Below are positions 9,081 to 43,364 of a stretch of DNA of 44,144 bases, one piece after another (within the stretch, counting starts at the first letter, position 1; the number at the start of each line of letters is the position of its first letter). Under the pieces are notes generated by a model that was not told the DNA's origin, ran no database searches, and was given only the letters and a program-made list of their open reading frames with translations. Origin of the DNA: Candidatus Cloacimonadota bacterium (lineage in GTDB: Bacteria > Muiribacteriota > UBA6191); assembly GCA_023954715.1 (NCBI GenBank), contig JAGSHD010000001.1, positions 556,468 to 600,611 of the forward strand, written 5' to 3'. A program made the position numbers and the translations under genes.

Positions 9081-11351
9081 TTAAGCCTTTATCTCTTGTA
9101 TTTTTGTCGTAACTTTATCTAATCTTTGTTGTTGCTTGGGGTCTGTCACGATTCCTTTAGATGCTTTTATAATCTCTAATGCTTTATCTAACTCACCTAA
9201 TTTTAAGCTGGTTGAAACTAAATCTCCATACCAAGAATCATTTTCGATTGTTAAAAAACCAAAAACAAGTTGTTTATAGGCATTTTTAAAATCACCTAAC
9301 TTTATGAATACTTGTGACAATAAAGAGTGTAAACGTACAGTATCGGGCAGAGTGCCATCTTGTATCATTTTTAAGATCTTTCTAAAAATAGGCCCCTGAA
9401 TCATTGATTTTGGCATTGCCGTCAATATTTCTATGAAGTTTCTATAATATCGATATTTGACATCTTGCTGATGTAATTTAGTTAGTAAAAACTCATCGCC
9501 TTTTTTAGCTTTTTTATACTGATAAGACAAGATTTCAAAGGTTAGCATACAGGTTTCATCTTGAGCAATAAGTCGTAAACATTGCTCCGTATCAACATCT
9601 TGCTCCATTTGCCGTGCTATATGAACTAAGGCCATTTGTATAAAAAAGTTTCGTAAGTATTTTTCACCAAGTTTACCGATAAACTGATGAGCTTTTCTCC
9701 ACTGTTTTTTAAGGCATAGGTCTCTTATTTTTATCATATACTCAAACAAGACATCATCAATAACACCATTAGAGCTTGAAACAAAGTCATGATCTCTAAA
9801 CCATATTTCTAAGTTTTCAATGATGATTGGATGTACATAATCTGTTGGCGTAAATTTTACATAATCATAAATTTGACGAATAGCTTGAATACCAACTCGT
9901 TGATCCACAGCACTTTCTGTAGCGATCAACTCTCTTAAATCATCTAAAACATAAGTAATCCCACCTAAAAACAAGACATAAGCTGCTACTGCTCTGTTTC
10001 TACCAGAATAGCTTTGATAATTTCGCTCTACATAGGATCGTAAGTCTGAGTTTGCCCAAAACTCTAGCCCTAGTAAAGCCGCTCTTTGGATCTCAACGTT
10101 TTCATCACCAAGTAACTCTTGATAGAGATCCTCTTTACCAGCTGGAACACTTTTAGCTATAGCATCAATACAAACTGAAACGATCTCTACATTATCTTTG
10201 TTTTTATTTAAAAGGTCATTGTAAAAGTCAAATAATGAAGCGTCTTCTAGGGTAGCTAATTGCTCAATTGCTTGAATTGTCACAAAGTCGATGTGACGAT
10301 CGCAAGCTTTCATCAATATATTTTTTACTTTTTCAGATTGGTTTCCTTGTAAAAAACGAATCACTTCTGTCAAAATATCTTCTCTTGTTTCGGATAATAA
10401 TAAAGAAGAGATCCAGTCTAACATTCTTTCATCTTTAGAAAACAACCTCGCCCCTTGAACCGCCATGATTCGAGCATCAAAAGAAGAGTTATTTAATAGA
10501 TTTGAAATTATTTTTAAACCTTTTTGTAAATCGTCATTAGACTTATTGTTTTCATATCGAATTGCCATTACTTCAGCAACGGTAGTAGCTAAACTAAAAC
10601 AATTTGAATCGGCATAGGTTTCTAACAAACTATCAGCAACTTGAGCCTCTTTTTTTAAGAAAATTAGACTTTGAATGGCTGCATTTACTACTAAATCAGC
10701 CTGCTTTTGTAAACATGACATGATTAGAGGAAACGCTATGTCTAAATCACCTTGGGCCATTACTCTTAGATAAGATGCTTTTAGATCAACACCTTCACAT
10801 TCATTGAATCGAGTCTTTAACATTTGGGTCTGAGCTTTTGAAAATTCACAAGTAAACAAAATCAATTTATCAAGTATAAATACTTCTTCTTCTTTGTTTA
10901 CATTGCCCAGGGACTCAATAACAAAATCTAAGCCTTCCGGATCTCCTAACTGACCCAAAGTAGCTATCATATCTTTTTTAACATGAGTTTCAAATTTATC
11001 CTGATTTTTTAACAAAAACTGGGTAATCTCTTTTGGTTTACCAAAATGCTTAAATGTGGAAAGAACCTCAATCTGTTGACCCATTGCTAAAGAAAAAATT
11101 TGTTTAGTCAAAACTTTGGCATAATAAGCGCTTGGCTTATTTTGGATGACTTTTATAACTGAATCAAAATATTCTTTGATATTAGATTCAGTAACCACTA
11201 GCTCGTCATATTTTGTAGATTTTAAATTTGCAATGAGCAAAATAGAAGTATGAACTAAATCCTTTTTGGGACTTTTCAATAGATCCGGTAAAAAATCAAA
11301 ATGAGGCGATAGAATTACCTCTAATAGATCTAATAATTTATTTGAAGACAT
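9081..11351 (-). CDS. large HEAT/ARM-repeat protein (756 aa), unknown function
   Basis: Repetitive alpha-helical pairs (LLxxLxDx-type repeats such as VQGARLFSKDER, IQAIEQLATLED, RAALLGLEF). No catalytic motif. Sits 6 bp upstream of the FKBP gene. Confidence 0.6.
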   Translation of the reverse strand: MSSNKLLDLLEVILSPHFDFLPDLLKSPKKDLVHTSILLIANLKSTKYDELVVTESNIKEYFDSVIKVIQNKPSAYYAKVLTKQIFSLAMGQQIEVLSTFKHFGKPKEITQFLLKNQDKFETHVKKDMIATLGQLGDPEGLDFVIESLGNVNKEEEVFILDKLILFTCEFSKAQTQMLKTRFNECEGVDLKASYLRVMAQGDLDIAFPLIMSCLQKQADLVVNAAIQSLIFLKKEAQVADSLLETYADSNCFSLATTVAEVMAIRYENNKSNDDLQKGLKIISNLLNNSSFDARIMAVQGARLFSKDERMLDWISSLLLSETREDILTEVIRFLQGNQSEKVKNILMKACDRHIDFVTIQAIEQLATLEDASLFDFYNDLLNKNKDNVEIVSVCIDAIAKSVPAGKEDLYQELLGDENVEIQRAALLGLEFWANSDLRSYVERNYQSYSGRNRAVAAYVLFLGGITYVLDDLRELIATESAVDQRVGIQAIRQIYDYVKFTPTDYVHPIIIENLEIWFRDHDFVSSSNGVIDDVLFEYMIKIRDLCLKKQWRKAHQFIGKLGEKYLRNFFIQMALVHIARQMEQDVDTEQCLRLIAQDETCMLTFEILSYQYKKAKKGDEFLLTKLHQQDVKYRYYRNFIEILTAMPKSMIQGPIFRKILKMIQDGTLPDTVRLHSLLSQVFIKLGDFKNAYKQLVFGFLTIENDSWYGDLVSTSLKLGELDKALEIIKASKGIVTDPKQQQRLDKVTTKIQEIKA

Positions 11352-18742: not shown

Positions 18743-19846
18743 ATGTTAAAAACTTATGATATTCGCTTTAAAATCATCGCTTCCTTTTTCTTTATTATCC
18801 TGTTGACTACTGTCTTTGTTGCAACCATCAACTTTATGGCCTCACAAAACTTGATTAAAACTCAAATCCAAAACGAGTTGGATCATTCAGCATCACTAAT
18901 TATTGATAATATTGAAGGTAAAATTTCTACTGCTAGTAAACTAGCCGATAAACTGAGCAAAAGTGACGAAATCATCAATGTATCTGAAAAAACAGGTGTT
19001 GCAATGGATCATTTTGTCCAATTTGTAGACCTCTATTTCAATGCATTTTACTGGGAAAAAAATGGCAAAGTAAATCATTGTAGCTACTACGATTTTCGAA
19101 ATATAGATCACTATTTAAAAGAAAACCTTTTTGAATATAAGAATGATTTTCCTGATTATGCGCGAGACATATTAAAAAATAAGCAAGCCCTATATACTAA
19201 AACTTTTTACCCAAAACCAGACCATTTAATTTTAGCTTACGCCGTCCCAGTGTTTCGAGATAAGGTCGTTTCCGGATTGATGAGTTTTGGAATCCACATT
19301 AATGATCCAAAAATTCAAAACATTGTTGAACGAATGATCCCTTCTCACAATGGTTTTGTCGCCTTAATTGATCACCAAGGAAAGATATTGGCTAAAGGTG
19401 GAAAAAGCCCAGCTAATTTCAAACATGTGGATTTAAAAAAACTCGATACCGATATTTTACGACTTGGACAAGATACCTTTAGTTATCGTCTTCAAAAAGC
19501 AAAACAAGCTGATATCTATGTACTAGTAGCCATCAATAATAATACAGCTTTATCTATCATTGATGACTTAGCTTTTTCTATTATCATATATTCATTTATA
19601 GCTTTAATATTGTCTATTATCCTATCGAGTCGTATTGCCAATTCTTTGTCTCAACCGATCAAGGCATTAATCGATGGAATCCAAGCAATTGATCAAGGAG
19701 TATACAGTACACAGATCAATACAAAAAGTAGCGGTGAACTCAATACTGCTATCAATGCCTTCAATCAAATGGCTCAAAAACTTCAACGAAACAAAATGAT
19801 TGAAAAAATTTGGATGAATCATTGGGAACAAAATGATGAAAAATAA
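18743..19846 (+). CDS. membrane sensor-like protein: TM, periplasmic Cache-like domain, TM, HAMP, and no output domain
   Basis: TM1 at residues ~13-35 and TM2 LAFSIIIYSFIALILSIILS. Then a HAMP-like amphipathic pair (SQPIKALIDGIQAIDQGVYS...ELNTAINAFNQMAQKLQ), after which the protein ends. Confidence 0.65.
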   Translation: MLKTYDIRFKIIASFFFIILLTTVFVATINFMASQNLIKTQIQNELDHSASLIIDNIEGKISTASKLADKLSKSDEIINVSEKTGVAMDHFVQFVDLYFNAFYWEKNGKVNHCSYYDFRNIDHYLKENLFEYKNDFPDYARDILKNKQALYTKTFYPKPDHLILAYAVPVFRDKVVSGLMSFGIHINDPKIQNIVERMIPSHNGFVALIDHQGKILAKGGKSPANFKHVDLKKLDTDILRLGQDTFSYRLQKAKQADIYVLVAINNNTALSIIDDLAFSIIIYSFIALILSIILSSRIANSLSQPIKALIDGIQAIDQGVYSTQINTKSSGELNTAINAFNQMAQKLQRNKMIEKIWMNHWEQNDEK

Positions 19847-22310
19847 CAAGATACCTAAACATATCTTGACCCTATGCCTTCTAGCACTATTTTTGTCTAT
19901 TAGCATTAATTTTTCGATCGTTTTAGGGCTTAGTTTATTTTTACAAAATCTAAGCGCCGCCCAACTACCCTACTTTTATATTTTGCTGAATGTCTTAAGT
20001 ATTTTATGTGGTTTTATCTTCTTTTTTTATCGTCCTAAAAGCATTCGCTCTATTATAAAGTTCGCTATTGCCAATAGCTGTATCCTCTTGTATTTCTATC
20101 TCTCTCCAAGTTTAAGTACAAGTAAATTATACCTTTTATATATTTGTACCTGTCTATTTAATATCTACGCTTTTATCTTCTTTTGGAATTTTGTCTCCAA
20201 TACTCTTAGTTTAAAAGAGATGAAACAATATGTTGGAGTCATTTCAGGAACTAACAACCTAGGCGCAGTATTTGCATCATTATTAGTAGGCCCCGCCTTA
20301 AGGTATTTTGACTTATCCACATGTTTTCTTGGACTTTTTATAGTCTATATTTTATTAGTTTTAGTCCTCATTCCACTTAAAAAACTAGAGTTAAACCCTA
20401 AAAAGCCATCGAGTTCATCAAATAAAACGAGTCCCCAAATATATAAACATAGCTTAGTTCGCCTCACTGCTTTGTTTATTTTTCTATCTGCGTTTATGAA
20501 GTTTTCTTTGGACTTTAGATATTCTATTGCCATTTCTGAACTATTTACAACTCAAGATCAACTTGCTAGCTTTATTGGAGGGTTTAACTCCGTTTTAAAA
20601 GCAAGCGGACTCATTTGGCAAATGCTCTTTTCTGCTTATGTCTTTAAACGCCTTTCTATCGTTCAATCATTATCTGTTATGTCCATTTGTACCTGTATTT
20701 TATCTATCTTTGCTTTTTTAACTCCTAACCCAAAGTTGGTCATAGCATTTCAATTTTGCTTTTTATTTTTTCTTACCACTTTTACGTTCCCTACTTTTAA
20801 CATTTTATTTGGGGCACTCAATGATTCCATCCAAGCTAAGGCCCGTTTTTTAAATGAGGGAATATTTTACTGTTTGGCAGTTTTACTATCTGGCCTACTA
20901 ATCATAGCCCTAAGAAAATTTAGTATACCCTCTCAAACTCTCTTCTTGTTTTTAACTGTCCTATCTATATTTTGGCTATGTTTTATAGCTAAAGTGAGAG
21001 ATGCTTATATCTCAGCCTTAAACGAAAATATCAATAGCAACATTGAAGGCTCAACTGAGACTTCTTCTGTCTCATCTCTGCACTCTTTACAAACAGACTT
21101 AAATCATAAAGACCCTCAAAAGAGATTAGACGCAATTTTAACCTTAAGAAAAACGAATGATAATCAGGCAGATCGTCTGATTCTTGATGTTTTGAAAACA
21201 GAACAAAATCCGCAAGTATTAAACATTCTTTTAAAATCAACTAAAAAGGTTAGAGTAGACTCAGAGTATAAATTAGAGGACAAGTTAGACATCAATGATA
21301 CACCAGAAAACATCTGCCAATTACTACGCTCTATCTCTCTTTCTAAGAAATCATCCATAGAGCCTATTCTTCCGTTTTTAAAACATAATGACCCTATGGT
21401 TAAAATCAACGCTATACTTGCTTGCTTCATATTATCTAACGATGAAGAACATTTAAAAGAAGCATCCAAACTATTTATTCATCTTATACAATCTGATAAT
21501 GTCAATGAACGAGAAGCGGCTGCATTATTGTTTGGTGATTTATCTATGGATTGTTTTATACCTTGTCTGCAAACCATGGTTTTTGACTCAGCACCTTCTG
21601 TTAGAAGAAACGCTATTCAATCCACTATCAAACAAGCTTCTAGTTCACATATTGACATCTTAAAGTCGGCCCTCAATAGCGAAAAGGATCAGAAAAACTT
21701 AGATCTTATCCATGACTCTTTAGAAATTCAAATGGATGAGTCCAAACGAATCTTAGATCGACTTTTATTAAAAGTACCCACCATCTATCAAGAAAAGGTC
21801 TTAACAGCATTTCATAAAATTGAAGATGAAAAAATACAAAAATTAGCCTGCCAATATTTATCCATTGAGCCTCACGAGCTAACCATTGATCTTATTCGTT
21901 TGATAGCCAAAAATCCTAAAGATGCCGAGTTTATAAAAATAATGTCTGCTTGTGTTACTACCGACATCATTTACTTAGATCAACTTGTTTTAGATATTTT
22001 TCTTAGTAACATTAATGAGTTTGATCATAAAGTTTTAAGAGTTATAGCAAACTTTTTAGACTCTAAAGATACTCAAGACATCATCAGAAAGGTATTCGAA
22101 CAAATCAATAGTACACAATATTCAATGCAAAACAAACTAAGAGTGTTACAAAGACTCTTAACTTTGGACGCTAGTTTTCCTTTAAAAGAAAGTGTTTTAG
22201 AAAACTTTTACAAGCAAGAGGATCAAAAAGTTGATATCTTAGAGGAGATCATTGATCACTCAGCCTATCCTAAAACCGTCAATGAATCGATCAAATTGGT
22301 ATTTTTATAA
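19833..22310 (+). CDS. fusion of a ~12-TM MFS-like transporter domain with a C-terminal cytoplasmic HEAT-repeat domain
   Basis: N-terminal 400 aa are hydrophobic with about 12 helices. The C-terminal 400 aa show HEAT-like repeats (DPQKRLDAILTLRKT, NPQVLNILLKS, NDPMVKINAILAC, SAPSVRRNAIQS). It overlaps the Cache-HAMP gene by 14 nt. Confidence 0.65.
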   Translation: MMKNNKIPKHILTLCLLALFLSISINFSIVLGLSLFLQNLSAAQLPYFYILLNVLSILCGFIFFFYRPKSIRSIIKFAIANSCILLYFYLSPSLSTSKLYLLYICTCLFNIYAFIFFWNFVSNTLSLKEMKQYVGVISGTNNLGAVFASLLVGPALRYFDLSTCFLGLFIVYILLVLVLIPLKKLELNPKKPSSSSNKTSPQIYKHSLVRLTALFIFLSAFMKFSLDFRYSIAISELFTTQDQLASFIGGFNSVLKASGLIWQMLFSAYVFKRLSIVQSLSVMSICTCILSIFAFLTPNPKLVIAFQFCFLFFLTTFTFPTFNILFGALNDSIQAKARFLNEGIFYCLAVLLSGLLIIALRKFSIPSQTLFLFLTVLSIFWLCFIAKVRDAYISALNENINSNIEGSTETSSVSSLHSLQTDLNHKDPQKRLDAILTLRKTNDNQADRLILDVLKTEQNPQVLNILLKSTKKVRVDSEYKLEDKLDINDTPENICQLLRSISLSKKSSIEPILPFLKHNDPMVKINAILACFILSNDEEHLKEASKLFIHLIQSDNVNEREAAALLFGDLSMDCFIPCLQTMVFDSAPSVRRNAIQSTIKQASSSHIDILKSALNSEKDQKNLDLIHDSLEIQMDESKRILDRLLLKVPTIYQEKVLTAFHKIEDEKIQKLACQYLSIEPHELTIDLIRLIAKNPKDAEFIKIMSACVTTDIIYLDQLVLDIFLSNINEFDHKVLRVIANFLDSKDTQDIIRKVFEQINSTQYSMQNKLRVLQRLLTLDASFPLKESVLENFYKQEDQKVDILEEIIDHSAYPKTVNESIKLVFL

Positions 22311-29713: not shown

Positions 29714-29937
29714 CTTTATACCTACCTCTCTATTTCTAAATACATTAAGAAGACCTGTATATCATAATTAATTAGCAAATTTCGAGCCAACTCAATATTC
29801 TATGTTAAACTCTCTTTTTTCCTCTATATATACTGTACTTATCGGTTGGTAGGCTTTTGTAATGGTAATATCGTAGACATTATGACTCATTTCTAATACA
29901 CTATGATGTATCTGACAAATCATATCATGAGGACTCT

Positions 29938-30927
29938 ATGAATCACGAAAAACGAAGCGCACAAACCTGTTATGAAGATTTTTACGGAATGCTTTCTGAT
30001 ACAGTTCGAATGAACGCCTACAAAGAAGCAATTAAGAGAAATGTAAATGAAGGAGATATAGTACTAGACCTTGGTGCTGGCACAGGTATTTTGTCTTTTC
30101 TTGCTTTAAAGGCTGGTGCTGCACGAGTCTATGCTATTGAAAAGAGTGATTCAATCGAGCTTGCTAAACAAATAAGCCAAATCAACGGCTTTGATGACAG
30201 AATAGTTTTTATCAATGATAACTCTTCAAATATTGAGTTGGCTGAAAAGGTTGATGTCATCATTTCTGAAACCTTGGGCAGTTTTGGCGTGGATGAAAAC
30301 ACTCTAGAGTTTACCTTAGATGCTCGAGATCGCTTTTTGAAAGAAAACGGAAAACTCATTCCTAGTGGTATTAAGATGTATTTGTGCCCCATCGAAGCCA
30401 AAAAATCTTATGAAAAAATCAACTTCTGGTCTGAAATCGAAGGAATTGACTTTTCTCCTGCTCGCAATATTTTTACGCAAAAAATTATGATTGAAAAAAT
30501 TCAGCAAGATCAATTTTTAGCTGAGCCCGTTTTGTTTAAAGAACTGGATTTTTACAAAGAGTCACGCCTAATTATTGAAAATTTAAATTATTTTAAATTT
30601 AACAGAGCGGGAGTTGTTCATGGTTTTGCTGGATGGTTTGACCTAACATTAGATAGTCAGAGTACTATTAATACTCATCCTTCATGTGAGTCTACTCACT
30701 GGAAACAGGCATTCTTTCCGGCTCAAGACCCTGTCTCCATTATTAAGGGTGATATGCTAGAGCTTAACTTAGAAGTTAGTGCTCAATCAGAGTCTTCAGA
30801 TAATACAAATATCCATTATAATTTTCGTTGTACCCAACTAGCAAATGAGCAAGTAAGCTCAGTTGGTAGAAATGACTTATGTCCCTGTAACAGCGGTAAA
30901 AAATATAAAAAATGTTGTTTGAAGTAA
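29938..30927 (+). CDS. PRMT-like (protein arginine N-methyltransferase fold) SAM-dependent methyltransferase fused to a C-terminal SEC-C zinc-binding motif
   Basis: Motif I VLDLGAGTGILS, post-I AKAGAARVYAIEKS, motif II VDVIISE, double-E loop E-x8-E (SETLGSFGVDE), and THW loop STHWKQ. The C-terminal CPCNSGKKYKKCC matches the SecA SEC-C consensus. Confidence 0.75.
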   Translation: MNHEKRSAQTCYEDFYGMLSDTVRMNAYKEAIKRNVNEGDIVLDLGAGTGILSFLALKAGAARVYAIEKSDSIELAKQISQINGFDDRIVFINDNSSNIELAEKVDVIISETLGSFGVDENTLEFTLDARDRFLKENGKLIPSGIKMYLCPIEAKKSYEKINFWSEIEGIDFSPARNIFTQKIMIEKIQQDQFLAEPVLFKELDFYKESRLIIENLNYFKFNRAGVVHGFAGWFDLTLDSQSTINTHPSCESTHWKQAFFPAQDPVSIIKGDMLELNLEVSAQSESSDNTNIHYNFRCTQLANEQVSSVGRNDLCPCNSGKKYKKCCLK

Positions 30928-30929
30928 CA

Positions 30930-31460
30930 CTATTTTTGTATCTGATTTAAATATCGCTCACACTCTTTTCGTGACTGTAAGTGTACAATCTCAATATGTT
31001 CATAAGCTGGGTTTGATTTTATTGTGTTGTATTTTACTCGATTTTTTTTGTATGTTTTTATTGTCCACCATACAATGGAATCACTTGAAAAAAGGTTTCT
31101 GAAGCTTTCTTTATTGCCTGTATTAGGCCATAACTCTTTTTGGGTGAAGATCCTATTTAATGCTCTTGATATTGATTGATATAGAGTTTGAATAATATTT
31201 AAATCTACCCATATAATTGTATCTACTTTTTTCCATTTTATCGGGGTCGTTCTTGTGTAGTTACCATCAAGCACCCAATCATCTTGATCTAGCGCCTTTT
31301 CAAGCCTCTCAAAAAGCACCTTATCATTTGGCATACTCCAATTTTTACCCCAAAATAAAGCATCCATCTCTACATAAGGAATATTTAACTTTTTAGATAG
31401 TTTTTTTGCAAAGGTACTTTTACCACTACCACTCGTACCAATCACATTAATTTTTTTCAC
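30930..31460 (-). CDS. P-loop nucleotide/nucleoside kinase-like protein (adenylate-kinase-like fold, topology-modulation-protein-like)
   Basis: N-terminal Walker A VIGTSGSGKSTFAKKL. Small size (176 aa) with a lid-like region. Confidence 0.55.
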   Translation of the reverse strand: MKKINVIGTSGSGKSTFAKKLSKKLNIPYVEMDALFWGKNWSMPNDKVLFERLEKALDQDDWVLDGNYTRTTPIKWKKVDTIIWVDLNIIQTLYQSISRALNRIFTQKELWPNTGNKESFRNLFSSDSIVWWTIKTYKKNRVKYNTIKSNPAYEHIEIVHLQSRKECERYLNQIQK

Positions 31461-31776: not shown

Positions 31777-34700
31777 TTATTGGCCTATCTCTAGGTCTAA
31801 CAATCGATTGGCCTTAATGTTAATCACTCCATCTTTTGAGACTCTTCGCCCCTCTGCAATTATAAAGTTAGATCGCCTAAAAATAATCCTATATTGCTCA
31901 TAAATTAATGGGGGTAATATGATGTTCATCATTCCAAACTCATCCTCTAATGTTAAAAATGCAAAGCCTTTAGCAGTAGGAGGACGTTGCCTGCAAACAC
32001 TCATTCCCGCTACTTTTAAAATATGTCCATTTCTAACTGTTTTTAATCTTGTAGAAGGAACAACCCCTGTTTTCACTAAGCTATCTCTCACCAATTTTAA
32101 TGGGTGTGTGGATGCAGAAAATCCTATAGATGAAAACTCATTTTGTAGCTTACTCCAATCACTTTCACTAGGAAGATCAGGCTCTTTTTCTTTCACTTGT
32201 ATCCATGATTTTTGTAAACTCCTCTTTTTATAAGCCCATAAACTCCATAATAACTCTCGTCTTGCTTGTTTAAAACAGTCAAAAGCTCCAGCTAGTATCA
32301 TATATTCAATTTTTTTATGATCCATATCTGTTCTATCTATAAAATCATACAGTCCTTCAAATATTTTTTCAGACCGAATAGAGTATATTTTTTCGCAAGC
32401 TGATATGGATAAACCTTTGATTAAATTTAATCCAATAAAAATTTTATTAGCTGCTCCAAAACAATATATTTCACTCTTATTAACACTAGGAGGAATGATT
32501 TCTATCCCATGATGCTTAGCATCTTGAATAATTACCTCATTTGAATAAAACCCCATAGGATGATGGTTTAGTATAGACGCCAAAAACTCTGCTGGATAAT
32601 ATTTTTTATACCAAGCTGACACATAAGTTATTTTTGCAAAAGCAAGCGCATGGGATTTACAAAATCCATATAATGCAAATCCTTCAAGAGCTTTATATAT
32701 GGAGTCAATCGCATCAAAGCTAAGTCCATTTTTTAAAGCTCTTTCAAAAAATACAGATTTTAACTGGGCCATAAGCTCTTTTGATCTTTTTTTACTCATA
32801 TTACGTCGTAATACATCCGCTTCTCCCTCACTAAAATCAGCAATCTCAATAGCCACTTGTAAAATTTGCTCTTGAAATAAAATTACCCCTAAAGTGTCTT
32901 TTAAAATTGGCTCCAAACTTGGGTGGTCATACTCTACCACTTCTTCTTTTTGCCTTCTTCTTATATAAGGATTTACCATCCCTCCTTGGAGTGGACCCGG
33001 TCTTATGATAGCTACTTGAATTGCTAATTCATGGAAGTTTCTTGGTTTTGTGCGAGGCAAACTCTGCATCTGTGCTCTTGACTCTACCTGAAACAAGCCC
33101 ACTGTATCTGCTTTACCCATTATGTCATAAACTCGTGGGTCATCCTCTTCAATATCTCTATAGTCGATCACACGATTTGTCGATTTTTTAATCTGATTTT
33201 TAACATCTCTTAAAACCGATAGCATCCTAAGACCTAAGATATCTACTTTAATTAGTCCAGCCTCCTCTACCATATCTTTATCCCACTGGCATACAACTCT
33301 GTTGTTCATCCTAGCGGGTTCTAGTGGTACAACTCTATGGATAGGTATAGATGATATAAGCATACCTCCCACATGAATCGAAGGATGCCTTGGTATGTTC
33401 ATGATAGCGTGTACCATATTTTGAAATACAATCCATGTTTTGGACTGAAGAAGCTTTGAAAACTCCTCCAATTTTGAAAAATCATCAAATGAAACTTTGG
33501 AGTTGTAAGTGCCGCATGTTTTAGCCATTTTTGATAAAACATGATCTGGAAACTCTAGTACCTTGCCAACTTCTTTTATGGCGCTACGAGCTCTAAATGT
33601 TACAAAAGTACAAACCATAGCTACATGATCATAACCGTACTTTTTATACACATATTGAATGATATCTTCTCGATCAAGCTCATTACCATTTGGGTAGCTA
33701 GCAAAGTCAATATCTATATCCGGAATCGCATCAGAGGATTCATTTAAAAACCTTCCAAAAAATAAATTGTGTTTAATAGGACAAACAGGAGTTATATCTA
33801 ATAAATAGGCTACTAAGGAGTTAGCTGCCGATCCTCTTCCTTGTGCTGGAATATTTTTGCCTAACGAATACTGAACAATATCCCAAACTAATAAAAAGTA
33901 TCCACATAAGGATTTATTTTTAATAACTTTTAGCTCAACCTCAAGTCTTTTATTTACTTCTCCTCTGTCTATGGTATTATTTTCAAAAGATACTCTATAT
34001 TTACGAGGAATCGCCTCATAGCATAGCTTTTGTAAGTAAGAATCTACCTTATACGAAGGTGGCACAGGAAAGTCCGGAAACCTATATTTTGAAAAATCTA
34101 AATTTAAACTACAAGACTCTGATATTTTTTGAGTATTATTTAATACTCTAGGATATTTTTTAAATAAGTCATTCATCTCTTCAAACGACTTTATAAATCT
34201 TTCATGGTTTGCAAATCTCAGACTATGTGACTCTCTTAGATTTACTTTATTTTTAATACATAATAATACATCCTGTAGTTTTGCATCCTCTCTTTTTGCA
34301 TAATGAACCCCGTTACTAGCGATGCACTCTATTTGCCTAGAGCTCGCATATTCATAAATCAAATCACAATGCTTTCTATCTTCTTTTTCTTTATGGTGAT
34401 TTAACTCAAAATACAAGTCTTGTTTATCAATATGTTTTAAATAGCTCGATACCAACTGATCTGCTTGATCTACTTTATTTTTTACTAACAAGTCATGTAA
34501 TACAGTAGATTTAAACCCTATCAAAACAAAAAAGTTATCATTTAACTCTAATAACATTTCATAAGTCGTCTTACTTATCCCCTTTTCTTGGCTTTTTCGT
34601 GATGCTGATATGATTGAGCATAAACTTTCGTAAGCACTTTGATTTTTACAAATCACCAAAATTTTATCGTTATTTTCTAATAATAAAATTGAGCCAATGA

Positions 34701-34884
34701 TTGGCTTGATCTCTAGCTCTATACATTTTTTGTAAAATGGTATTACTCCATACAAACCGGACTCATCAGTTAATGCAATAGCAGATAAACCCTTCTCCTT
34801 AGCCATAATTACCAAGTCTTCTGGGCTCGAAGAAGCACATAAAAACGAAAAATAACTCTGACTATGTAACTCTGAAAAAGACAT
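31777..34884 (-). CDS. dnaE2: error-prone DNA polymerase III alpha paralogue DnaE2 (ImuC)
   Basis: N-terminal PHP domain (ELHSQSYFSFLCASSSPEDL), polymerase core (GRGSAANSLVAYLLDITPV, DIDIDF), OB-fold C-terminus. At 1035 aa it lacks the tau/beta-binding tail of DnaE1. It sits immediately downstream of the imuB-like gene. Confidence 0.85.
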   Translation of the reverse strand: MSFSELHSQSYFSFLCASSSPEDLVIMAKEKGLSAIALTDESGLYGVIPFYKKCIELEIKPIIGSILLLENNDKILVICKNQSAYESLCSIISASRKSQEKGISKTTYEMLLELNDNFFVLIGFKSTVLHDLLVKNKVDQADQLVSSYLKHIDKQDLYFELNHHKEKEDRKHCDLIYEYASSRQIECIASNGVHYAKREDAKLQDVLLCIKNKVNLRESHSLRFANHERFIKSFEEMNDLFKKYPRVLNNTQKISESCSLNLDFSKYRFPDFPVPPSYKVDSYLQKLCYEAIPRKYRVSFENNTIDRGEVNKRLEVELKVIKNKSLCGYFLLVWDIVQYSLGKNIPAQGRGSAANSLVAYLLDITPVCPIKHNLFFGRFLNESSDAIPDIDIDFASYPNGNELDREDIIQYVYKKYGYDHVAMVCTFVTFRARSAIKEVGKVLEFPDHVLSKMAKTCGTYNSKVSFDDFSKLEEFSKLLQSKTWIVFQNMVHAIMNIPRHPSIHVGGMLISSIPIHRVVPLEPARMNNRVVCQWDKDMVEEAGLIKVDILGLRMLSVLRDVKNQIKKSTNRVIDYRDIEEDDPRVYDIMGKADTVGLFQVESRAQMQSLPRTKPRNFHELAIQVAIIRPGPLQGGMVNPYIRRRQKEEVVEYDHPSLEPILKDTLGVILFQEQILQVAIEIADFSEGEADVLRRNMSKKRSKELMAQLKSVFFERALKNGLSFDAIDSIYKALEGFALYGFCKSHALAFAKITYVSAWYKKYYPAEFLASILNHHPMGFYSNEVIIQDAKHHGIEIIPPSVNKSEIYCFGAANKIFIGLNLIKGLSISACEKIYSIRSEKIFEGLYDFIDRTDMDHKKIEYMILAGAFDCFKQARRELLWSLWAYKKRSLQKSWIQVKEKEPDLPSESDWSKLQNEFSSIGFSASTHPLKLVRDSLVKTGVVPSTRLKTVRNGHILKVAGMSVCRQRPPTAKGFAFLTLEDEFGMMNIILPPLIYEQYRIIFRRSNFIIAEGRRVSKDGVINIKANRLLDLEIGQ

Positions 34885-36360
34885 CTAAATGGAGTATTTA
34901 GTATAAAACCACTCTTGATCGCAACGATCAAAAAATATAGATGAAATTTGACCCTCTAATAAAAGGAGTAAAAAGTATTGTCTTTGAATCGGTTTTTCTA
35001 GCCACCATTCATCTTCAAAAATCCATGATCTTAATATTTTTTTTATAAAATAAGAACGACCCTTTAAATCAAACTTTTTTGGAATGTTTTCTTTTGATAA
35101 AACTCGAATTGGAATTGGCTTTAAAGTCTTTTTTGTCTCATAATTATCATCTACTAAAGTTAAATGTGATCTCTTTTCTGGTAGAATATGGTCTTCATTG
35201 TCCCAATCAAAATTATAAACTTTTAACTTTTTTTTATTTAAACGATGTATGCTCTGATGAATTGACCTCAACTTAGTAGAGCTCTTTAAAAAGTCCATTA
35301 AACTCTCTTGTTTTGAAAATTCAGAAAGTGTCTTGGGTATTTTAACTTTAAAAGCTACTACAGGATGATATAAGCGCATATTTAATAATTGATCTTCTAG
35401 CTGTCTAATCCATGTTTTCATATCACGGTTTGCCTTGGAAAAGCTCATGTCAAAATAAAGTGGAGCTCCTTGATCAAAAATTATTTGAATCGATATTTTA
35501 GCAGTTAATTGATGTCTTTCTTTTAATAGACTATTAAATACTAAAAGCTCAGACTTAATTTCTGAAGTCAAAAATGACAAATCCCATACCCAAGTACTAA
35601 AATACTTTTCTTTTTCTAAAATAATATTAGGATGCGATATCTTTAATGGATTAAAAATTTGACCACGAATTAATTTATATATACGCTCTCCTTCTTGAGA
35701 AAACTGTAAATATAACTCCTTATGTGTTAGACGAAACAAATCTTTAATTTTATATATTCCTAGCTTATACATTTTATTCAAATCTCTATTACTCAAGTTT
35801 AAATATTGAACCGAAATGTCGCCTAAATACTCTGCTTCTTTATTTTTTTTGATTAATAAACATTGCCCAGATTTAATCTTATGTAAAGCTAAATTTGCTA
35901 AAAACTTTGTACTTGCGATACTCACGCATGCTTTTAATTTTAGTTCACTTAAAATAGTACGGATCAATTTTAGACAAAAGTCCGATTGCTTATCCTCTTG
36001 AATCGCTGGATCCAATTCAAAATAAAACAACCCATAATCAGATTTTTCAACTTTTGGGGAGTAGCGATAAATAATTTCAAAAAGATCTTTTTGCTCTTTT
36101 TCTAAAATATTTTGTTCGCTTTGGATAAAACCGGCCTGAAAACATAAAGACTCTGCTTTTTTATGAAGCATTGAGACCTCTACCCCACACCTCGCTGCAA
36201 AACTAGATAAATCAGACACACGCAATGGTAGACTAGATGAATCCAATAAAATATAAGGTTTATCTAAAGGTAAGTTTTTATGCTTAACATGAGCATAAGT
36301 CTTAAAATATGGAATAGATACACAAACAATCATAAAATTATTATGAATTGTTTTAAGCAA
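34885..36360 (-). CDS. imuB: ImuB-like inactive Y-family polymerase paralogue
   Basis: N-terminal Y-family fold with the catalytic Asp replaced (IVCVSIPYF in place of LVDCNNFY), long C-terminal extension, gene abutting dnaE2 (34884/34885). The start may be the TTG at 36360 or the ATG at 36333. Confidence 0.6.
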   Translation of the reverse strand: MLKTIHNNFMIVCVSIPYFKTYAHVKHKNLPLDKPYILLDSSSLPLRVSDLSSFAARCGVEVSMLHKKAESLCFQAGFIQSEQNILEKEQKDLFEIIYRYSPKVEKSDYGLFYFELDPAIQEDKQSDFCLKLIRTILSELKLKACVSIASTKFLANLALHKIKSGQCLLIKKNKEAEYLGDISVQYLNLSNRDLNKMYKLGIYKIKDLFRLTHKELYLQFSQEGERIYKLIRGQIFNPLKISHPNIILEKEKYFSTWVWDLSFLTSEIKSELLVFNSLLKERHQLTAKISIQIIFDQGAPLYFDMSFSKANRDMKTWIRQLEDQLLNMRLYHPVVAFKVKIPKTLSEFSKQESLMDFLKSSTKLRSIHQSIHRLNKKKLKVYNFDWDNEDHILPEKRSHLTLVDDNYETKKTLKPIPIRVLSKENIPKKFDLKGRSYFIKKILRSWIFEDEWWLEKPIQRQYFLLLLLEGQISSIFFDRCDQEWFYTKYSI

Positions 36361-37613: not shown

Positions 37614-38818
37614 TACTGTACTACTTTCAAGGCTTCTACAGGACGCACCTTAGTTGCTTGAAATGCTGGTACCATTCCAAATATTAATCCTACTAAAATT
37701 GATGTCCCTACAGATACAAAACACGACATTACTGAGAAACGAATTGGCATTCCTGAAAAACTTGATATCATTTGCGCTAAAAACCAACCAAAAGCTAGCC
37801 CTAGTACTCCACCACATACAGAAATAAATAAAGTTTCTAATAAAAATTGATACAAAATATCTTTGGACTTTGCACCTACTGCCCGTCGTAACCCTATTTC
37901 AGGAATTCTTTCTAAAATATTGGCTAACATAATATTCATAATACCTATCCCTCCTACTAACAAAGAAATAAATGCTATGCTCAACATTACAATATTAAAA
38001 ATATCTTGGGTCTCATTTTTTTGCTTTAACAACTCTAAAGGGGCAGATATCTTACAAATAGAAACACCTTTATGATATCTATCAATATCTTTCTCGATAG
38101 CATATTTATAAGTAAGTGTGTTTTCTAGTTTATTCACATTTAAACGAATTTTATCTAGAGACATAAAAGCTTCATTGGGGGTTAGCTTGCTAAAAACAGT
38201 GCTAATAGGAAAGTAAGCTACAAGCTCTTTATTACCTGTTTTAGTAGTAACTGCCCCTATAACATCAAAAATAACATTATGCACTCTAATTTGCGTTTTA
38301 TTCGCTTTATCTAGCTTTTTCTTTAAAGAAGAAGATACTACAGCCACATTTAAGTTTTTTTCAAAGTCTCTGTTTCTAAAACTCCTACCTTGCGATTGAA
38401 TCAATGAAAAGTATTCAAAATACTTCTTAGAGACTGCCATATATTTCGCACTAAAACCTAACTGTTCTAATGTAGAAGAATAAGGGACAAAAGTTTTACT
38501 ATAAGCTATTCCCACAAAACTATTTTGATCTTGAAAAGTCTGCTTCAATCGATGTACATCTCTAATAGACAAACCTGGAGTTTTAGAAATATTTTTACGA
38601 ATAAACTCTTCATTGGCTTTAATTGCATCAAGAGTCACATAATTAGAGCCCATTTCTTCAAGCTTTTTTTGAATTTGAAAGTTTGCACCAGAAGATACAG
38701 CAACCATAGATATAACAGCACCAATTCCAAAGATGATACCTAACATAGCTAAAAATGTTCTAAGGGGGTGTAATCGTAAAACCAACCATGAATTATAAAT
38801 TAAAGTTCTTGTATCCAC
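37613..38818 (-). CDS. MacB/FtsX-family ABC transporter permease
   Basis: N-terminal TM, ~220-aa periplasmic domain, three C-terminal TMs (FtsX fold: LSIAFISLLVGGIGIMNIM..., VSVGTSILVGLIFGMVPA). Confidence 0.8.
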   Translation of the reverse strand: MDTRTLIYNSWLVLRLHPLRTFLAMLGIIFGIGAVISMVAVSSGANFQIQKKLEEMGSNYVTLDAIKANEEFIRKNISKTPGLSIRDVHRLKQTFQDQNSFVGIAYSKTFVPYSSTLEQLGFSAKYMAVSKKYFEYFSLIQSQGRSFRNRDFEKNLNVAVVSSSLKKKLDKANKTQIRVHNVIFDVIGAVTTKTGNKELVAYFPISTVFSKLTPNEAFMSLDKIRLNVNKLENTLTYKYAIEKDIDRYHKGVSICKISAPLELLKQKNETQDIFNIVMLSIAFISLLVGGIGIMNIMLANILERIPEIGLRRAVGAKSKDILYQFLLETLFISVCGGVLGLAFGWFLAQMISSFSGMPIRFSVMSCFVSVGTSILVGLIFGMVPAFQATKVRPVEALKVVQ

Positions 38819-39774
38819 TCAAGCCTCACATCAACTTCCATTCCTTCTGAAAAAGAAGTTATCTGGTTATCTAAATTACCTCGAACATGAATAAATTTGT
38901 CATAACTGTTTAAAATTGATGGGTTCTTCTTTATAACAGGTAAAATTTGTAAAAATGGGTTCCAAGAGTCAATTGTTGCTTCATAAGATTTACCTGTTTT
39001 CACAAGAGTAACTTTTGCTTTTGCCCCTACTTTAAGTTGTCTTAAAAATCTCTCCGGAACAAAAAACTCTAAAGATGCGCTTTTGGTTGTAGAAATATAA
39101 GCACAAACTGACCCACACTTTAAACGATCGTTTACTTTAATAGGACGTTTATATTGGTTATGATGAGGGAAAAATAAATATCCATCAAAAGGAGCCTTTG
39201 TAACAAAGCGATCTAGTTGTACTTGTACATGATCAATCTCAGAAAGTACCCTATCGATTTCAATTTGATAGTATTTTTCTTGTATCTCCTTTACGCCTTT
39301 TAAGTGTAAAAGATCCTCTTGTAAGTCTTTAATATTTATTTTTTGAATCTCTATATCCAAATGTAATTTTTGAAGATCATATTTAGCCATTACAGATGAT
39401 GCCACCAATTGTACTTCTAGCTGTCCTAAATCAATTTTAGCTCTTAATATTTCTGTCTCTTTTTCTGAAATTGCTTGTTTATTTTTTTGTAAAATTTCAC
39501 GCTTTTTAGACTTAGCTAAATTTAATTCTCTATTTCCACGAGACACTACCCAATGAGCAGAAATATTAAACTCAGAAACAATATCTCCTGCTTTAACTTT
39601 TGTACCAGACTCTTGTCTAGTCTTTAAGCTAACACTACTTGAGGAAGAAGCGCTTCCAAAGCCTCGAATTTCAAATCTAGGAGCTCTTAGCTCTACAGGG
39701 TTCACAGGAACCAATCGACCTTCAAAACAAAAAATACTACAGACAGTAGTAAAGAATACCACCCACTTAGTCAT
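38800..39774 (-). CDS. HlyD-family periplasmic adaptor (first adaptor)
   Basis: N-terminal TM, coiled-coil segment, beta-barrel C-terminus. It overlaps the ATPase gene by 8 nt and the permease gene by 19 nt. Confidence 0.7.
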   Translation of the reverse strand: MTKWVVFFTTVCSIFCFEGRLVPVNPVELRAPRFEIRGFGSASSSSSVSLKTRQESGTKVKAGDIVSEFNISAHWVVSRGNRELNLAKSKKREILQKNKQAISEKETEILRAKIDLGQLEVQLVASSVMAKYDLQKLHLDIEIQKINIKDLQEDLLHLKGVKEIQEKYYQIEIDRVLSEIDHVQVQLDRFVTKAPFDGYLFFPHHNQYKRPIKVNDRLKCGSVCAYISTTKSASLEFFVPERFLRQLKVGAKAKVTLVKTGKSYEATIDSWNPFLQILPVIKKNPSILNSYDKFIHVRGNLDNQITSFSEGMEVDVRLEWIQEL

Positions 39775-40664: not shown

Positions 40665-43364
40665 TTATTGTTTATTTAGAGTATAAGTACCATTACATTG
40701 TCCACTCGTCCAATTACCAGTAATTTGAGTATTCGTTGCATTTAATGCACCCATTGAGAAAGTATTGTTACTATCTAAAAAGGTAATACTTGTACCAGAA
40801 GTCGTTAAAGTAGTTCCGTAAAATGTTGATTTATCACTATTTTGAGCAGACCAAGACTGATTCTTTTCACTGATATTGACTATCATAGAACCATCAGCAC
40901 CACAACTATCGGTTAATGCGCCAGTCCATTGACCAATAAAATTTGGCTCAACACCAGAAGCTAACTTACTCGGCTTAACTTTAACAATAAAAACAGCTCC
41001 ATTTGAAAGGTCATTATTATTATAAAAACCACCTTCAAAGCCTTTAGCGGTAGTAGCTCCCTTATCTGCTTTTAACAATACAAATCCAGAAATAGATCCA
41101 TAACTCTTTAAAAAGAAGCTAAAGTCACCATCAAAAGTTAGTTTACCACCATCAACAATTACCACACCATTTAATGAATTAGGTTTATTTAAGCTGTTTG
41201 TCTCACTATGGTTTTGAGTAAATTTTGTACTGATTAGGTTTACTACATTTAAACTAGCATCAACTGTGAAATTTGCTGTTCCACGGTATCTTGCATTTAA
41301 CTGACTCGAATAAGTAGTTACTCCTGACTGATAATACTCTGCTCGCGTATCATCAAATACCGCATTTAAAGTGTTAGTACCATTTTTAGTATAAGTAACA
41401 GTTGAATTTGTTGAAGTATTTACCTTCTCTCCTCGGTGATAAGAAACCACTCGAGTACGAGTTACTTTAATACCTGCAAATGTCCAAGTAATATTTTTTG
41501 TCGAAGTTAACTGATTCGCCTCAAAATACTCTTTAGTTAAACTCAAAGATGATCCATCTGTATTTACTACGAAATTATATTTTTCGATACCTGATGTTAG
41601 TGTACGACTCCAAGTAACCCCTGTAGTATTCAATGCATTAAAAACACTGTTTCCACCAAGAAAGTTATTACTATTTGTAATAATAATATTATTAGCTAAA
41701 GTTGCATTTGCAGTATCAATCGTATCATCTAAACCAACAGAAAGAGTTTCGTAAGGTATTTTTGTTTGAATATAAGATTTTAAACCAGCGTTACCTTCAA
41801 TACCATCTCCTTTTGATAAAACATCAATTAACGTCGTATCATCAATAAACAAAATTGCTGCATCATTTGTTTCTTCGATCGTTCCATCTGTTTTAACTTT
41901 AATATCAACAGATACTTTTCCAGCTGTTGTCACTTTTGATAAATCCTGACTTAAAACAGTTACTTCATCTAAAGTAAAGTTATTTGGAATGCGTAAACTT
42001 ACGCTGTTATTTACTAATAAAGCTATATCAATTGTTTGCTTTAAAGACGTACTATTTGTTTTGAAAATTGAGTTTCCACTCTGACTGTCAATCGTTCCTG
42101 AAAAATGTCCCTTTGCTATTACCACAGGAGTCTTTAAAACATTATAACCATTGATGGTTGTATTACTCGCAACCTGCATACCATTAGCTTGTGCCAAAAC
42201 AAATGGAGCCAATTGTAATTGAGCTTTTAAGTTTTCTGATTTTGTACCTGTTACATTAATATTACTAGCAACACTTTGCCATGCTGTCCCATCAAATCTT
42301 AAATAAGTTAAACCTGTTTTATTGATATCAGAAAAATTATAAGAATCAATGACTTCACTTACTATATTTGCGTCAACGACACTTTTTACATTATTACCCG
42401 ATGTATCCTTTAAAATAATGTCAGCGCCCATAACAACTTGATAACCAGCATCTCTTAACAAGTCATACTTAGGAATATCAATTAAGCTTTTATAAGGAGT
42501 AACAAATACTTTGTATTGTGTAGCTTTTGTTGTAACTTCAACTAGCTTTTTTACGACTACTAGATCGCCTATCTTAGCTGGAGTTGTTTTATTTATAAAA
42601 GATAGATCACTTGTTAAATTATCAGAAGACTTTTCAGAAAAGCTGATTTCGTTATCTGCACTTAAGCCAATTTGAGTTTTACTTTTAGTAGATTCTTCGA
42701 TTTTATTTTCATCACTAGTTAGTTTTACAATCTCCTTTAGCTTTTGTACTAAAGGGTTTGTAGTTGCACTTGGTGCAGGACTTTTATCCAGAATAAGGTT
42801 CTTGAACAAATCTTGAGTAGAAGAAGTAGTATCAGTAACAATTTTAGCTATATCACTACTAGAAGCCGACAAACCATTGAACAGTTTAGTATCTAATTCT
42901 TGTAAATATTTTTGAAAAGTTTTAGGATTTAAATTTTGAGAATAGTTTTGGGCAACTGATGCCCCTAATTGAATATCTCCTACTGCTTTCACAGGAGCAA
43001 ACATAACAAAGTTTAAATTACCAGCAGCAGCATTATCAATAGGATCGACCGTTGCTAAAGTATTGCTACCTTCAGCAATTAACATATACTCAATACCTGG
43101 GTCTAAAATATATTCAATTGCAAATTTACCTTCATCATCTGAGATGTCATTTGGTTCTCCACTATCAAAAACGCCATTGTAATTTAGATCTAAAAATACT
43201 CTTGAATTTTTGATAGGCCCATCACTAACAATACCGCTAATAACACTTATTACACCTGGATCACTTGTAGCAACTGCACCGCCACTACCACCACCACAAC
43301 CAGTAATGAAAAATATTAGTGAAACCAAGAGCCCCACAACAAAAGTACTTTTTATTTTGTTCAT
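40665..43364 (-). CDS. large Ser/Thr/Asn-rich lipoprotein (899 aa), probable surface or adhesin-like protein
   Basis: Lipoprotein signal LVSLIFFITG-C followed by a GGGSGG linker. The rest is beta-rich low-complexity polar sequence with few charged stretches. Confidence 0.7.
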   Translation of the reverse strand: MNKIKSTFVVGLLVSLIFFITGCGGGSGGAVATSDPGVISVISGIVSDGPIKNSRVFLDLNYNGVFDSGEPNDISDDEGKFAIEYILDPGIEYMLIAEGSNTLATVDPIDNAAAGNLNFVMFAPVKAVGDIQLGASVAQNYSQNLNPKTFQKYLQELDTKLFNGLSASSSDIAKIVTDTTSSTQDLFKNLILDKSPAPSATTNPLVQKLKEIVKLTSDENKIEESTKSKTQIGLSADNEISFSEKSSDNLTSDLSFINKTTPAKIGDLVVVKKLVEVTTKATQYKVFVTPYKSLIDIPKYDLLRDAGYQVVMGADIILKDTSGNNVKSVVDANIVSEVIDSYNFSDINKTGLTYLRFDGTAWQSVASNINVTGTKSENLKAQLQLAPFVLAQANGMQVASNTTINGYNVLKTPVVIAKGHFSGTIDSQSGNSIFKTNSTSLKQTIDIALLVNNSVSLRIPNNFTLDEVTVLSQDLSKVTTAGKVSVDIKVKTDGTIEETNDAAILFIDDTTLIDVLSKGDGIEGNAGLKSYIQTKIPYETLSVGLDDTIDTANATLANNIIITNSNNFLGGNSVFNALNTTGVTWSRTLTSGIEKYNFVVNTDGSSLSLTKEYFEANQLTSTKNITWTFAGIKVTRTRVVSYHRGEKVNTSTNSTVTYTKNGTNTLNAVFDDTRAEYYQSGVTTYSSQLNARYRGTANFTVDASLNVVNLISTKFTQNHSETNSLNKPNSLNGVVIVDGGKLTFDGDFSFFLKSYGSISGFVLLKADKGATTAKGFEGGFYNNNDLSNGAVFIVKVKPSKLASGVEPNFIGQWTGALTDSCGADGSMIVNISEKNQSWSAQNSDKSTFYGTTLTTSGTSITFLDSNNTFSMGALNATNTQITGNWTSGQCNGTYTLNKQ

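Follow-up and report, generated by a model that had tools for sequence, protein, structure and literature searches.

What a methyltransferase of the eukaryotic type may be doing in a bacterium, and why it should end in a SecA-type metal-binding domain (SEC-C), is the question raised by one gene in the stretch of DNA analysed here (44,144 nucleotides, hereafter the window; Candidatus Cloacimonadota bacterium, assembly GCA_023954715.1, contig JAGSHD010000001.1, positions 556,468 to 600,611 of the forward strand). The gene encodes a protein in which the core of a protein arginine methyltransferase (PRMT) is followed by a short SEC-C tail (hereafter PRMT-SEC-C). PRMT-fold arginine methylation is treated as essentially eukaryotic, and bacterial homologues have been noted in passing, in natural-product contexts. 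What is new is a conserved clade of PRMT-SEC-C proteins with a respiratory-operon context, the sequence of which was already public under a mistaken name; literature searches turned up nothing on proteins of the PRMT-SEC-C kind, nor on PRMTs encoded in clusters of the nap type. We suggest below that the enzyme may serve an exported respiratory module related to the periplasmic nitrate reductase (Nap) system.

The original prediction had recognised all the hallmarks of PRMTs in this protein, and each of them was located, with agreement well above what chance would give: the S-adenosylmethionine (SAM)-binding motif I (invariant residues D44, G46 and G48), the post-I acidic residue, motif II (VDVIISE, amino acids 105-111), the double-E loop and the THW loop, together with a beta-barrel domain that Pfam PRMT_C covers nearly to its full length (E-value 6.4e-25, amino acids 146-297, 159 of the 164 profile positions). 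Ahead of these, the N-terminal helices carry a YxxFY motif (amino acids 12-16, within CYEDFYGML at amino acids 11-19), and generic Rossmann methyltransferase models of Pfam match amino acids 30-146. In PRMTs the post-I acid is the ribose-binding position and the double-E glutamates clamp the guanidinium group of the substrate; in the residue-level alignment with yeast Hmt1, E111 and E120 pair with both catalytic glutamates of that enzyme. These two residues, together with T253, H254 and W255 of the THW loop, the motif I residues, the post-I E68 and M18, are invariant across 64 family members. The double-E loop has a signature of its own (SETLGSFGxDEN in the family, as opposed to SEWMGYxLxYES in eukaryotic type I PRMTs), and no NCBIfam model reaches its cutoff on the protein, which is thus not covered by any curated family model.

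Comparisons with solved structures lead to the same place. All 79 sequence matches in the PDB (phmmer) were PRMTs, with yeast Hmt1 as the best (8e-42), PRMT6, PRMT2, PRMT3, PRMT8, PRMT1 and CARM1 at 1e-38 to 1e-32, and weaker matches to PRMT9 and PRMT7. An AlphaFold2 model based on 64 homologues (mean predicted local distance difference test, pLDDT, 90.5; predicted template-modelling score 0.84) comprises the N-terminal helices, a Rossmann fold, two arm helices (amino acids 155-165 and 173-179) and the barrel strands, and its 50 best Foldseek matches in the PDB are all type I PRMTs (E-values of about 1e-31 to 1e-33; template-modelling scores of 0.70-0.79 over 296-330 columns, PRMT2, PRMT6, PRMT3 and CARM1 included). 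The structural comparison that had been proposed as a check of the original prediction hence came out on the side of PRMTs, and its contrary outcome, a placement among small-molecule or rRNA methyltransferases devoid of the PRMT beta-barrel, is not what was found: the barrel is present and the matches are PRMTs. Judging from sequence and model, we are confident that PRMT-SEC-C is an enzyme of the PRMT fold; it is probably a homodimer.

The resemblance to eukaryotic type I PRMTs (Hmt1, PRMT1/2/3/6/8 and CARM1) extends from the architecture (the same Rossmann fold and beta-barrel with a dimerisation arm) to motif I, the post-I acid, the double-E and THW loops, the YxxFY-type helix and one of the two active-site methionines, at an identity of about 27-31% over some 300 residues. 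These two methionines (M48 and M155 of PRMT1) are type I product determinants. The first corresponds to the invariant M18, which is aligned with the methionine of the Hmt1 'EML'; the M155-equivalent position (the one after second Glu+1), which we take to be a methionine in type I enzymes, is T122 here and T, M or L within the family. What sets the present protein apart is that it is bacterial, 329 amino acids long, provided with a SecA-type C-terminal domain and placed in a respiratory-operon context. Its catalytic core is acidic (net charge -14, isoelectric point 4.9; family median -10).

The C-terminal SEC-C motif, also part of the original prediction, was recovered by Pfam (4.3e-9, amino acids 311-328; 36.5 bits, the cutoff being 20.4) and by peptide matches in the PDB to the C-terminus of YchJ (9l6b, 1.7e-7) and to the SecA zinc domain (1sx0/1tm6/1ozb, 1e-6 to 2e-5; 1ozb being a complex with SecB). 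The last 20 residues of the protein also match full-length Bacillus subtilis SecA. The core of the tail, GRNDLCPCNSGKKYKKCC (amino acids 310-327), holds the predicted metal ligands C315, C317, C326 and C327 in the expected CxCx8C[C/H] pattern, with the conserved S319 and Y323, and the cysteines are kept in at least 90% of the 64 family members. With a net charge of +4 the tail is basic, as opposed to the acidic core. Its family consensus, GRNDPCPCGSGKKYKKCC, is almost the sequence of Escherichia coli SecA; the window copy departs from it at L314 and N318, where most members have P and G, and retains the four cysteines, the serine and the tyrosine. As in SecA, YecA/AscA, YchJ and some methionine aminopeptidases, the same CxCxSGx6-8C[CH] knuckle stands after GRND, is basic, has almost nothing following it and is preceded by a flexible linker; the difference is that its carrier in the present case is a methyltransferase.

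The domain has known partners. In YecA/AscA it binds SecB and 70S ribosomes, with a dissociation constant of about 150 nM for the AscA domain and SecB (bioRxiv 10.1101/2020.07.21.215244). Published work gives the SecA domain the same two partners. SecA-like domains bind zinc or iron, with iron bound in vivo; the SecA-type domain is also found on methionine aminopeptidases, and the authors of this work have speculated that the Sec machinery may gain new functions through it as a portable module. A methyltransferase carrying it is not mentioned in these papers on the SecA/YecA/AscA/YchJ domain. The original suggestion, that the tail targets the enzyme to ribosome, translocon or chaperone, agrees by analogy with the published binding of YecA/AscA through this same domain, and we regard the proposition that the tail is a docking device as evenly poised. 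Two distant relatives (P0249 and P0284, 28-34% identity) have degenerate SEC-C ends, CPCGSGAKLSVCC and CYCGSGDPVEDCC, from which the basic residues are gone and in which the cysteines are kept; this hints that metal binding could be the older constraint and SecB/ribosome docking the more recent one. In a subgroup of 'Deltaproteobacteria' (P0028, P0034, P0109 / L081) the SEC-C domain is followed by a conserved extension of about 45 amino acids (...VDIKGMVEEGFGIDLKKLEEMRKVK).

The original prediction had also called the domain combination unusual, a view that does not hold: a word-indexed search retrieved 555 relatives (E <= 1e-3), and in no fewer than 110 of the 120 nearest clusters (formed at 90% identity; 48-85% identical to the query and about 330 amino acids long) the SEC-C domain stands at the very end, with a short extension after it in three more. 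When a barrel-plus-tail query was run exhaustively against representatives at 50% identity, 5 clusters reached 1e-30 and 1807 reached 1e-3, so that the family appears as a compact clade within a large superfamily of PRMT-barrel proteins. Most of the other bacterial PRMT-like genes (about 30-40% identity) are without both the THW loop and SEC-C. The taxonomic spread of the fusions, which had been suggested for scrutiny, includes among the named sources Gammaproteobacteria (Methylococcales, Thiohalobacter sp. IOR34), Zetaproteobacteria (Mariprofundaceae), Magnetococcales and 'Deltaproteobacteria', known from metagenome-assembled genomes of marine, vent-associated and other environmental samples, with a single cultured isolate (Thiohalobacter sp. 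IOR34). Tail loss occurs as well, in a subclade that includes Reichenbachiella and at locus L159, whose PRMT is 73% identical to that of the window. We also weighed the idea of an effector directed at eukaryotic hosts and abandoned it, given the environmental sources and the lack of a signal peptide.

The neighbourhood of the gene gave the strongest lead towards a function. No conserved context was apparent in the first five loci examined; it emerged with more loci, first on three long contigs that had the gene next to or within the cluster described below; about 50 loci were added by a family-specific sub-alignment scan of metagenome contigs. Of the distinct family loci that have 10 kb or more of flanking DNA, 34 in number, 16 had a NapA-like gene, 16 a NapG- or NapH-like gene and 18 at least one of them. 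Such genes were absent from all 37 control loci of matching length that surround distantly related PRMT-like genes (Fisher 7e-8, with no correction for relatedness). When the neighbouring open reading frames (ORFs) were clustered all against all, these Nap-like genes came out as the widely shared neighbours, the only others being a NarL regulator (just above its NCBIfam cutoff), a NarQ/NarX-like kinase (below the NarQ/NarX cutoffs) and a 134-amino-acid protein (unk134). The last lies immediately upstream of the PRMT gene in Gammaproteobacteria and is absent from the window; it has no Pfam match, and its 145 homologues are all annotated as hypothetical.

The linked cluster consists of a dihaem cytochrome c, a NapA-like molybdoenzyme (in L075, L076, L077, L080, L106 and other loci), a NapG-like polyferredoxin with a twin-arginine translocation (Tat) signal, one or two NapH-like membrane polyferredoxins and a FixH-like anchored protein; in some cases a chlorite-dismutase-like protein, TatA, or NarL with the NarQ/NarX-like kinase belongs to it as well. 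Tat signals of the form RRxFLK are found on linked proteins; the NapA-like enzyme (890-920 amino acids) carries a Tat signal, and among solved structures it comes nearest to periplasmic nitrate reductases (2jio, 2nya, 3ml1). Scores fall well below the NCBIfam cutoffs (about 320-340 against 904-930 bits for the NapA-like, 108-139 against 269 for the NapG-like and 64-154 against 234 for the NapH-like proteins; hereafter NapA', NapG' and NapH'), and the nap operon types described so far (napEDABC, napDAGHB, napCMADGH and napAGHBFLD) hold no methyltransferase (review PMC13223375). Considering that the scores are sub-equivalog and that none of these types matches, the module is Nap-like and not canonical Nap, and by its gene content it is an operon type outside the four described ones. 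NapH-like modules are known to combine in a modular manner with many periplasmic oxidoreductases (PMC8238504). For the NapA' enzyme, the NarL and NarQ/NarX-like regulators suggest that its substrate may be nitrate or nitrite. The gap between napA' and napG' in locus L075 holds no NapD-like ORF. A "molybdopterin oxidoreductase" cluster of iron oxidisers, which we also considered, proved to encode alternative complex III, which is unrelated.

The linkage takes at least eight forms. In the gamma type, unk134-prmt is followed by the regulators (NarL and the kinase) on the opposite strand, and these by cytc-napA'-napG'-napH'-fixH'-napH2'; the zeta type reads cytc-napA'-napG'-(cld-like)-prmt-napH'-..., with the 3' end of prmt overlapping napH' by 16 nucleotides (napG'-prmt-napH' in L106). 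Similarly tight gene orders are napA'-napG'-tatA-sensor-prmt in L076 (the prmt start overlaps the upstream stop codon, and TatA is two genes upstream) and napA'-prmt-napG'-napH' in L080 (gaps of 60 and 2 nucleotides; no tail). Further forms are convergent (L108), high in G+C and tail-less (L122/123) or partial (L081). On this evidence of gene order, we think it somewhat probable that the functional link between the PRMT clade and the Nap-like module is real. Since operon-embedded members may be without the tail, the latter is not essential to the link.

The window has an arrangement of its own: the PRMT gene is divergent from an overlapping NapG-like/NapH-like pair, across an intergenic region of 224 bp. 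The NapG-like protein bears a twin-arginine signal (FSRRQVLGF) and is 45% identical over 183 amino acids to its counterpart in the L075 cluster (3e-51); the NapH-like gene overlaps it by 8 nucleotides, and its product is 25% identical over 332 amino acids to the NapH-like protein of L077. The same NapH'-NapG' and PRMT trio, with identical gene lengths, recurs at L159 between different outer flanks, so that the trio is the conserved unit in this lineage. The window NapH-like protein has an additional C-terminal domain of about 150 amino acids, and the pair adjoins a CzcBA-type efflux system.

Taken together, we read PRMT-SEC-C as an arginine methyltransferase that serves the Nap-like exported module and is held by its tail at the ribosome, SecB or the membrane, a tentative reading to which we give slightly less than even weight. 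The protein would be a cytoplasmic enzyme of the type I PRMT fold that uses SAM to methylate guanidino nitrogens. Its catalytic elements are intact, and a short flexible linker connects the acidic core with the basic tail of the SecA type, which is predicted to bind zinc or iron; neither a signal peptide nor a transmembrane segment was seen on reading the sequence. It would act as an accessory or maturation factor of an exported NapG/NapH-like quinol-dehydrogenase respiratory module (accompanied in most of the linked loci by the Tat-exported NapA-like molybdoenzyme and the dihaem cytochrome c), by methylating one or more arginines of a subunit in the cytoplasm, before Tat/Sec export or during membrane insertion, and the tail would hold it where the precursors emerge (the ribosome exit, SecB, or the anionic membrane close to the translocon), as this domain does for SecA and YecA/AscA. 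As NapG' and NapH' are common to all the arrangements, they are the prime candidate substrates. Near-invariant arginines (the twin arginines and the LRPPG motif of NapG'; R9, R126, R162 and R242 of NapH', in window numbering) make up a list of candidate sites, which is not to be taken as evidence of methylation. The closest functional parallel may be sought in NapD, NapF and NapL, which are likewise cytoplasmic, encoded as non-catalytic-subunit genes in nap-type operons and active on precursors before Tat export, and to which PRMT-SEC-C has no relation in sequence or fold.

A more specific version of this proposal, which we consider unlikely, would make arginine methylation a maturation or checkpoint step that precedes the export of a periplasmic respiratory complex, with the tail parking the enzyme at the ribosome, SecB or the translocon. 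The target would then be a specific arginine of the NapG', NapH' or NapA' precursors, which could even be found in the twin-arginine signal peptide, in the conserved LRPPG or next to CX3CP, and its methylation would govern how the complex is assembled, targeted to the Tat pathway or supplied with electrons. If true, this would give the first physiological substrate of a bacterial PRMT and the first link of arginine methylation to protein export or anaerobic respiration. A compact bacterial clade with a full catalytic set, a docking-type domain and a Nap-like partner in any case yields a short list of candidate substrates.

Several observations weigh against the proposed service to a Nap-like module. 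About half of the family loci, that of Thiohalobacter sp. IOR34 included, have no Nap-like gene within 8-10 kb, and the whole window has no NapA-like gene. Many of the linked loci come from related Gammaproteobacteria, so that the counts overstate their independence. The tail is absent from the operon-embedded L080 and L122/123 and from L159, and the basic residues thought to contact SecB have been lost in P0249 and P0284. Moreover, no motif rich in RGG/RG was found in any conserved neighbour, and the literature searches returned neither a methylarginine in Nap or related proteins nor a paper linking the two.

Some of these points favour another use of the same architecture. Along the lines of the original prediction, the enzyme could be a PRMT generally tethered to the ribosome or SecB. 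It would then methylate a ribosomal protein, SecB or many nascent and pre-secretory chains, and the Nap-like neighbours would reflect co-transfer on a respiratory island. The tail is nearly identical to the SecA/YecA domains that bind SecB and ribosomes, the acidic core would suit basic substrates such as ribosomal proteins, and the loci without a Nap-like neighbour would need no special explanation. Eukaryotic PRMT3 offers an analogy, as its N-terminal C2H2 zinc finger binds the ribosomal protein uS5, so that both proteins join a PRMT core to a small zinc-binding module (in PRMT3 one that guides it towards the translation machinery), although the module of PRMT-SEC-C is unrelated, stands at the opposite end of the protein and would have a different partner. 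Yet hitch-hiking hardly accounts for genes that overlap or are spaced by 2 nucleotides within operons, in several unrelated arrangements. The Nap-like linkage is kept by tail-less members, and the patchy, accessory distribution is unlike that of a housekeeping ribosome modifier; we therefore find this general role rather doubtful. The tail could instead be a metal or redox sensor (through zinc or iron occupancy, or cysteine oxidation) that switches the methyltransferase. The in vivo binding of iron by SecA-like domains, the cysteine ligands that distant relatives keep without the basic docking residues, the Fe-S and redox proteins of the neighbourhood, and the report of YchJ, which has the same motifs, as a regulator that senses reactive oxygen species (PMC13377102) all point in that direction. 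The switch reported for YchJ is, however, an intermolecular disulfide at Cys149 and not the SEC-C knuckle (PMC13377102), and the strongly conserved GRND...KKYKK, identical to the SecB-/ribosome-binding surface of SecA, would be unneeded for mere metal binding. We hold a sensing tail to be decidedly unlikely as an account of its own; it is compatible with docking and does not exclude it.

The substrate might, on the other hand, be a small molecule (free L-arginine, another guanidino compound or a peptide natural product). PRMT homologues of bacteria have been associated with operons for peptide antibiotics (PMC3417536), and SznE methylates the guanidino group of free arginine (PMC11705231). The position equivalent to M155 of PRMT1 is replaced here, and one family locus (L071) adjoins a cluster of the polyketide synthase/lipid type. 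This locus is the only one with such a context, whereas SznE/StzE (streptozotocin biosynthesis) and the natural-product PRMT-like enzymes, also bacterial and N-methylating guanidino groups, are found in biosynthetic clusters and act on free arginine or peptides. Given that the dimerisation arm, the barrel and the acidic surface of protein-directed PRMTs are retained, and that a protein-docking tail makes little sense on a metabolite enzyme, a small-molecule substrate seems very improbable. Almost certainly wrong is the reading conveyed by the public record, in which the protein (MCO4781140.1) and many of its relatives carry the name "50S ribosomal protein L11 methyltransferase", i.e., PrmA, a lysine/N-terminal methyltransferase of L11. 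Apart from this name, its support is a Pfam PrmA match (9.5e-12) that is restricted to the Rossmann part (profile positions 153-261 of 296), the class I SAM-dependent domain that both proteins have in common. The N-terminal L11-binding domain of PrmA was not found by Pfam, NCBIfam prmA (TIGR00406) gives 41.8 of the 183.15 bits required, and PrmA is without the PRMT barrel, double-E and THW loops that are present here. The match being so limited and the score so far below the cutoff, the public name is unsupported and we rule out the PrmA identity, thereby correcting what is a systematic database error.

The gene itself is complete, and an AGGA Shine-Dalgarno sequence (29930-29933) stands ahead of its ATG, which follows five bases on. 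The deposited model is longer (343 amino acids) and begins 14 codons upstream, at an ATA (29896-29937 being the extra codons). Because the ATG preceded by AGGA gives an N-terminus that lines up with 63 homologues, the deposited start codon is probably wrong. Eukaryotic contamination can be set aside, as the G+C fraction of the gene (0.358) fits that of the whole window (0.331) and the genes around it are bacterial (FtsH, Ddl, DnaB, CzcBA, an ImuB-DnaE2 cassette and a MacB-type ATP-binding cassette system).

Table. Features of the PRMT-SEC-C gene and of the adjoining NapG-like/NapH-like pair (positions are those of the window; aa, amino acids)
Feature	Position	Strand	Description or basis
NapH-like membrane polyferredoxin, 446 aa	27751..29091	-	Pfam Fer4_5, CX3CP motifs; NCBIfam NapH/MauN 1e-19
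NapG-like poly-[4Fe-4S] ferredoxin, 209 aa	29084..29713	-	NCBIfam NapG 4.7e-31, short of the equivalog cutoff
Intergenic region shared by the divergent PRMT gene and NapG-like/NapH-like operon	29714..29937	.	224 bp; contains an inverted repeat
PRMT-SEC-C gene, complete	29938..30927	+	ATG start, 329 aa plus stop
N-terminal helices, aa 8-35	29959..30042	+	AlphaFold2 helices 8-19 and 22-35; Hmt1 alignment; invariant columns
SAM-binding motif I VLDLGAGTG, aa 42-50	30061..30087	+	Invariant residues D44, G46, G48
Post-I acidic residue E68 (in YAIEKS)	30139..30141	+	Invariant in 64 sequences; aligned with Hmt1 'gvD'
Double-E loop ETLGSFGVDE (E111-x8-E120)	30268..30297	+	Aligned to Hmt1 SEWMGYFLLYES
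PRMT beta-barrel domain, including helical dimerisation arm (aa ~155-180)	30373..30828	+	Pfam, AlphaFold2, Foldseek
THW loop STHWKQ, aa 252-257	30691..30708	+	Aligned with Hmt1 yTHWkq
Polar linker, aa 301-309	30838..30864	+	Gapped and length-variable in the family; pLDDT dips to 68 (aa 301-310)
SecA-type metal-binding domain (SEC-C) GRNDLCPCNSGKKYKKCCLK	30865..30924	+	Pfam SEC-C; PDB peptide matches

Just 5' of the PRMT Shine-Dalgarno sequence lies an inverted repeat (TATGATGTATC / GACAAATCATA, 29902-29924, 82% complementary, with a 1-nucleotide spacer), which could be an operator. A promoter-like site at 29874-29902 was not above chance, and the same was true of a promoter and terminator scan around the PRMT gene. 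On the other side, a P-loop kinase-like protein (AAA_18/SKI, 176 amino acids, 30930-31460, minus strand) faces the PRMT gene in convergent orientation, with 2 nucleotides and no terminator-like structure between their stop codons.

Elsewhere in the window, three ORFs on the minus strand have no Pfam match at E <= 1e-5 (40665-43364, 899 amino acids; 3776-4834, 352 amino acids; 38800-39774, 324 amino acids). An ImuB-like Y-family protein (491 amino acids) is directly followed by a DnaE2-like polymerase (1035 amino acids, with PHP, pol III alpha and HHH domains), a pair (31777-36360, minus strand) that, by its gene content, is an SOS mutagenesis-type cassette; an ImuA-like gene was not noticed there. 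Two further proteins have architectures unusual for bacteria, namely a fusion of a major facilitator superfamily transporter domain with HEAT repeats (825 amino acids, 19833-22310, plus strand) and a separate HEAT-repeat protein of 756 amino acids (9081-11351, minus strand).

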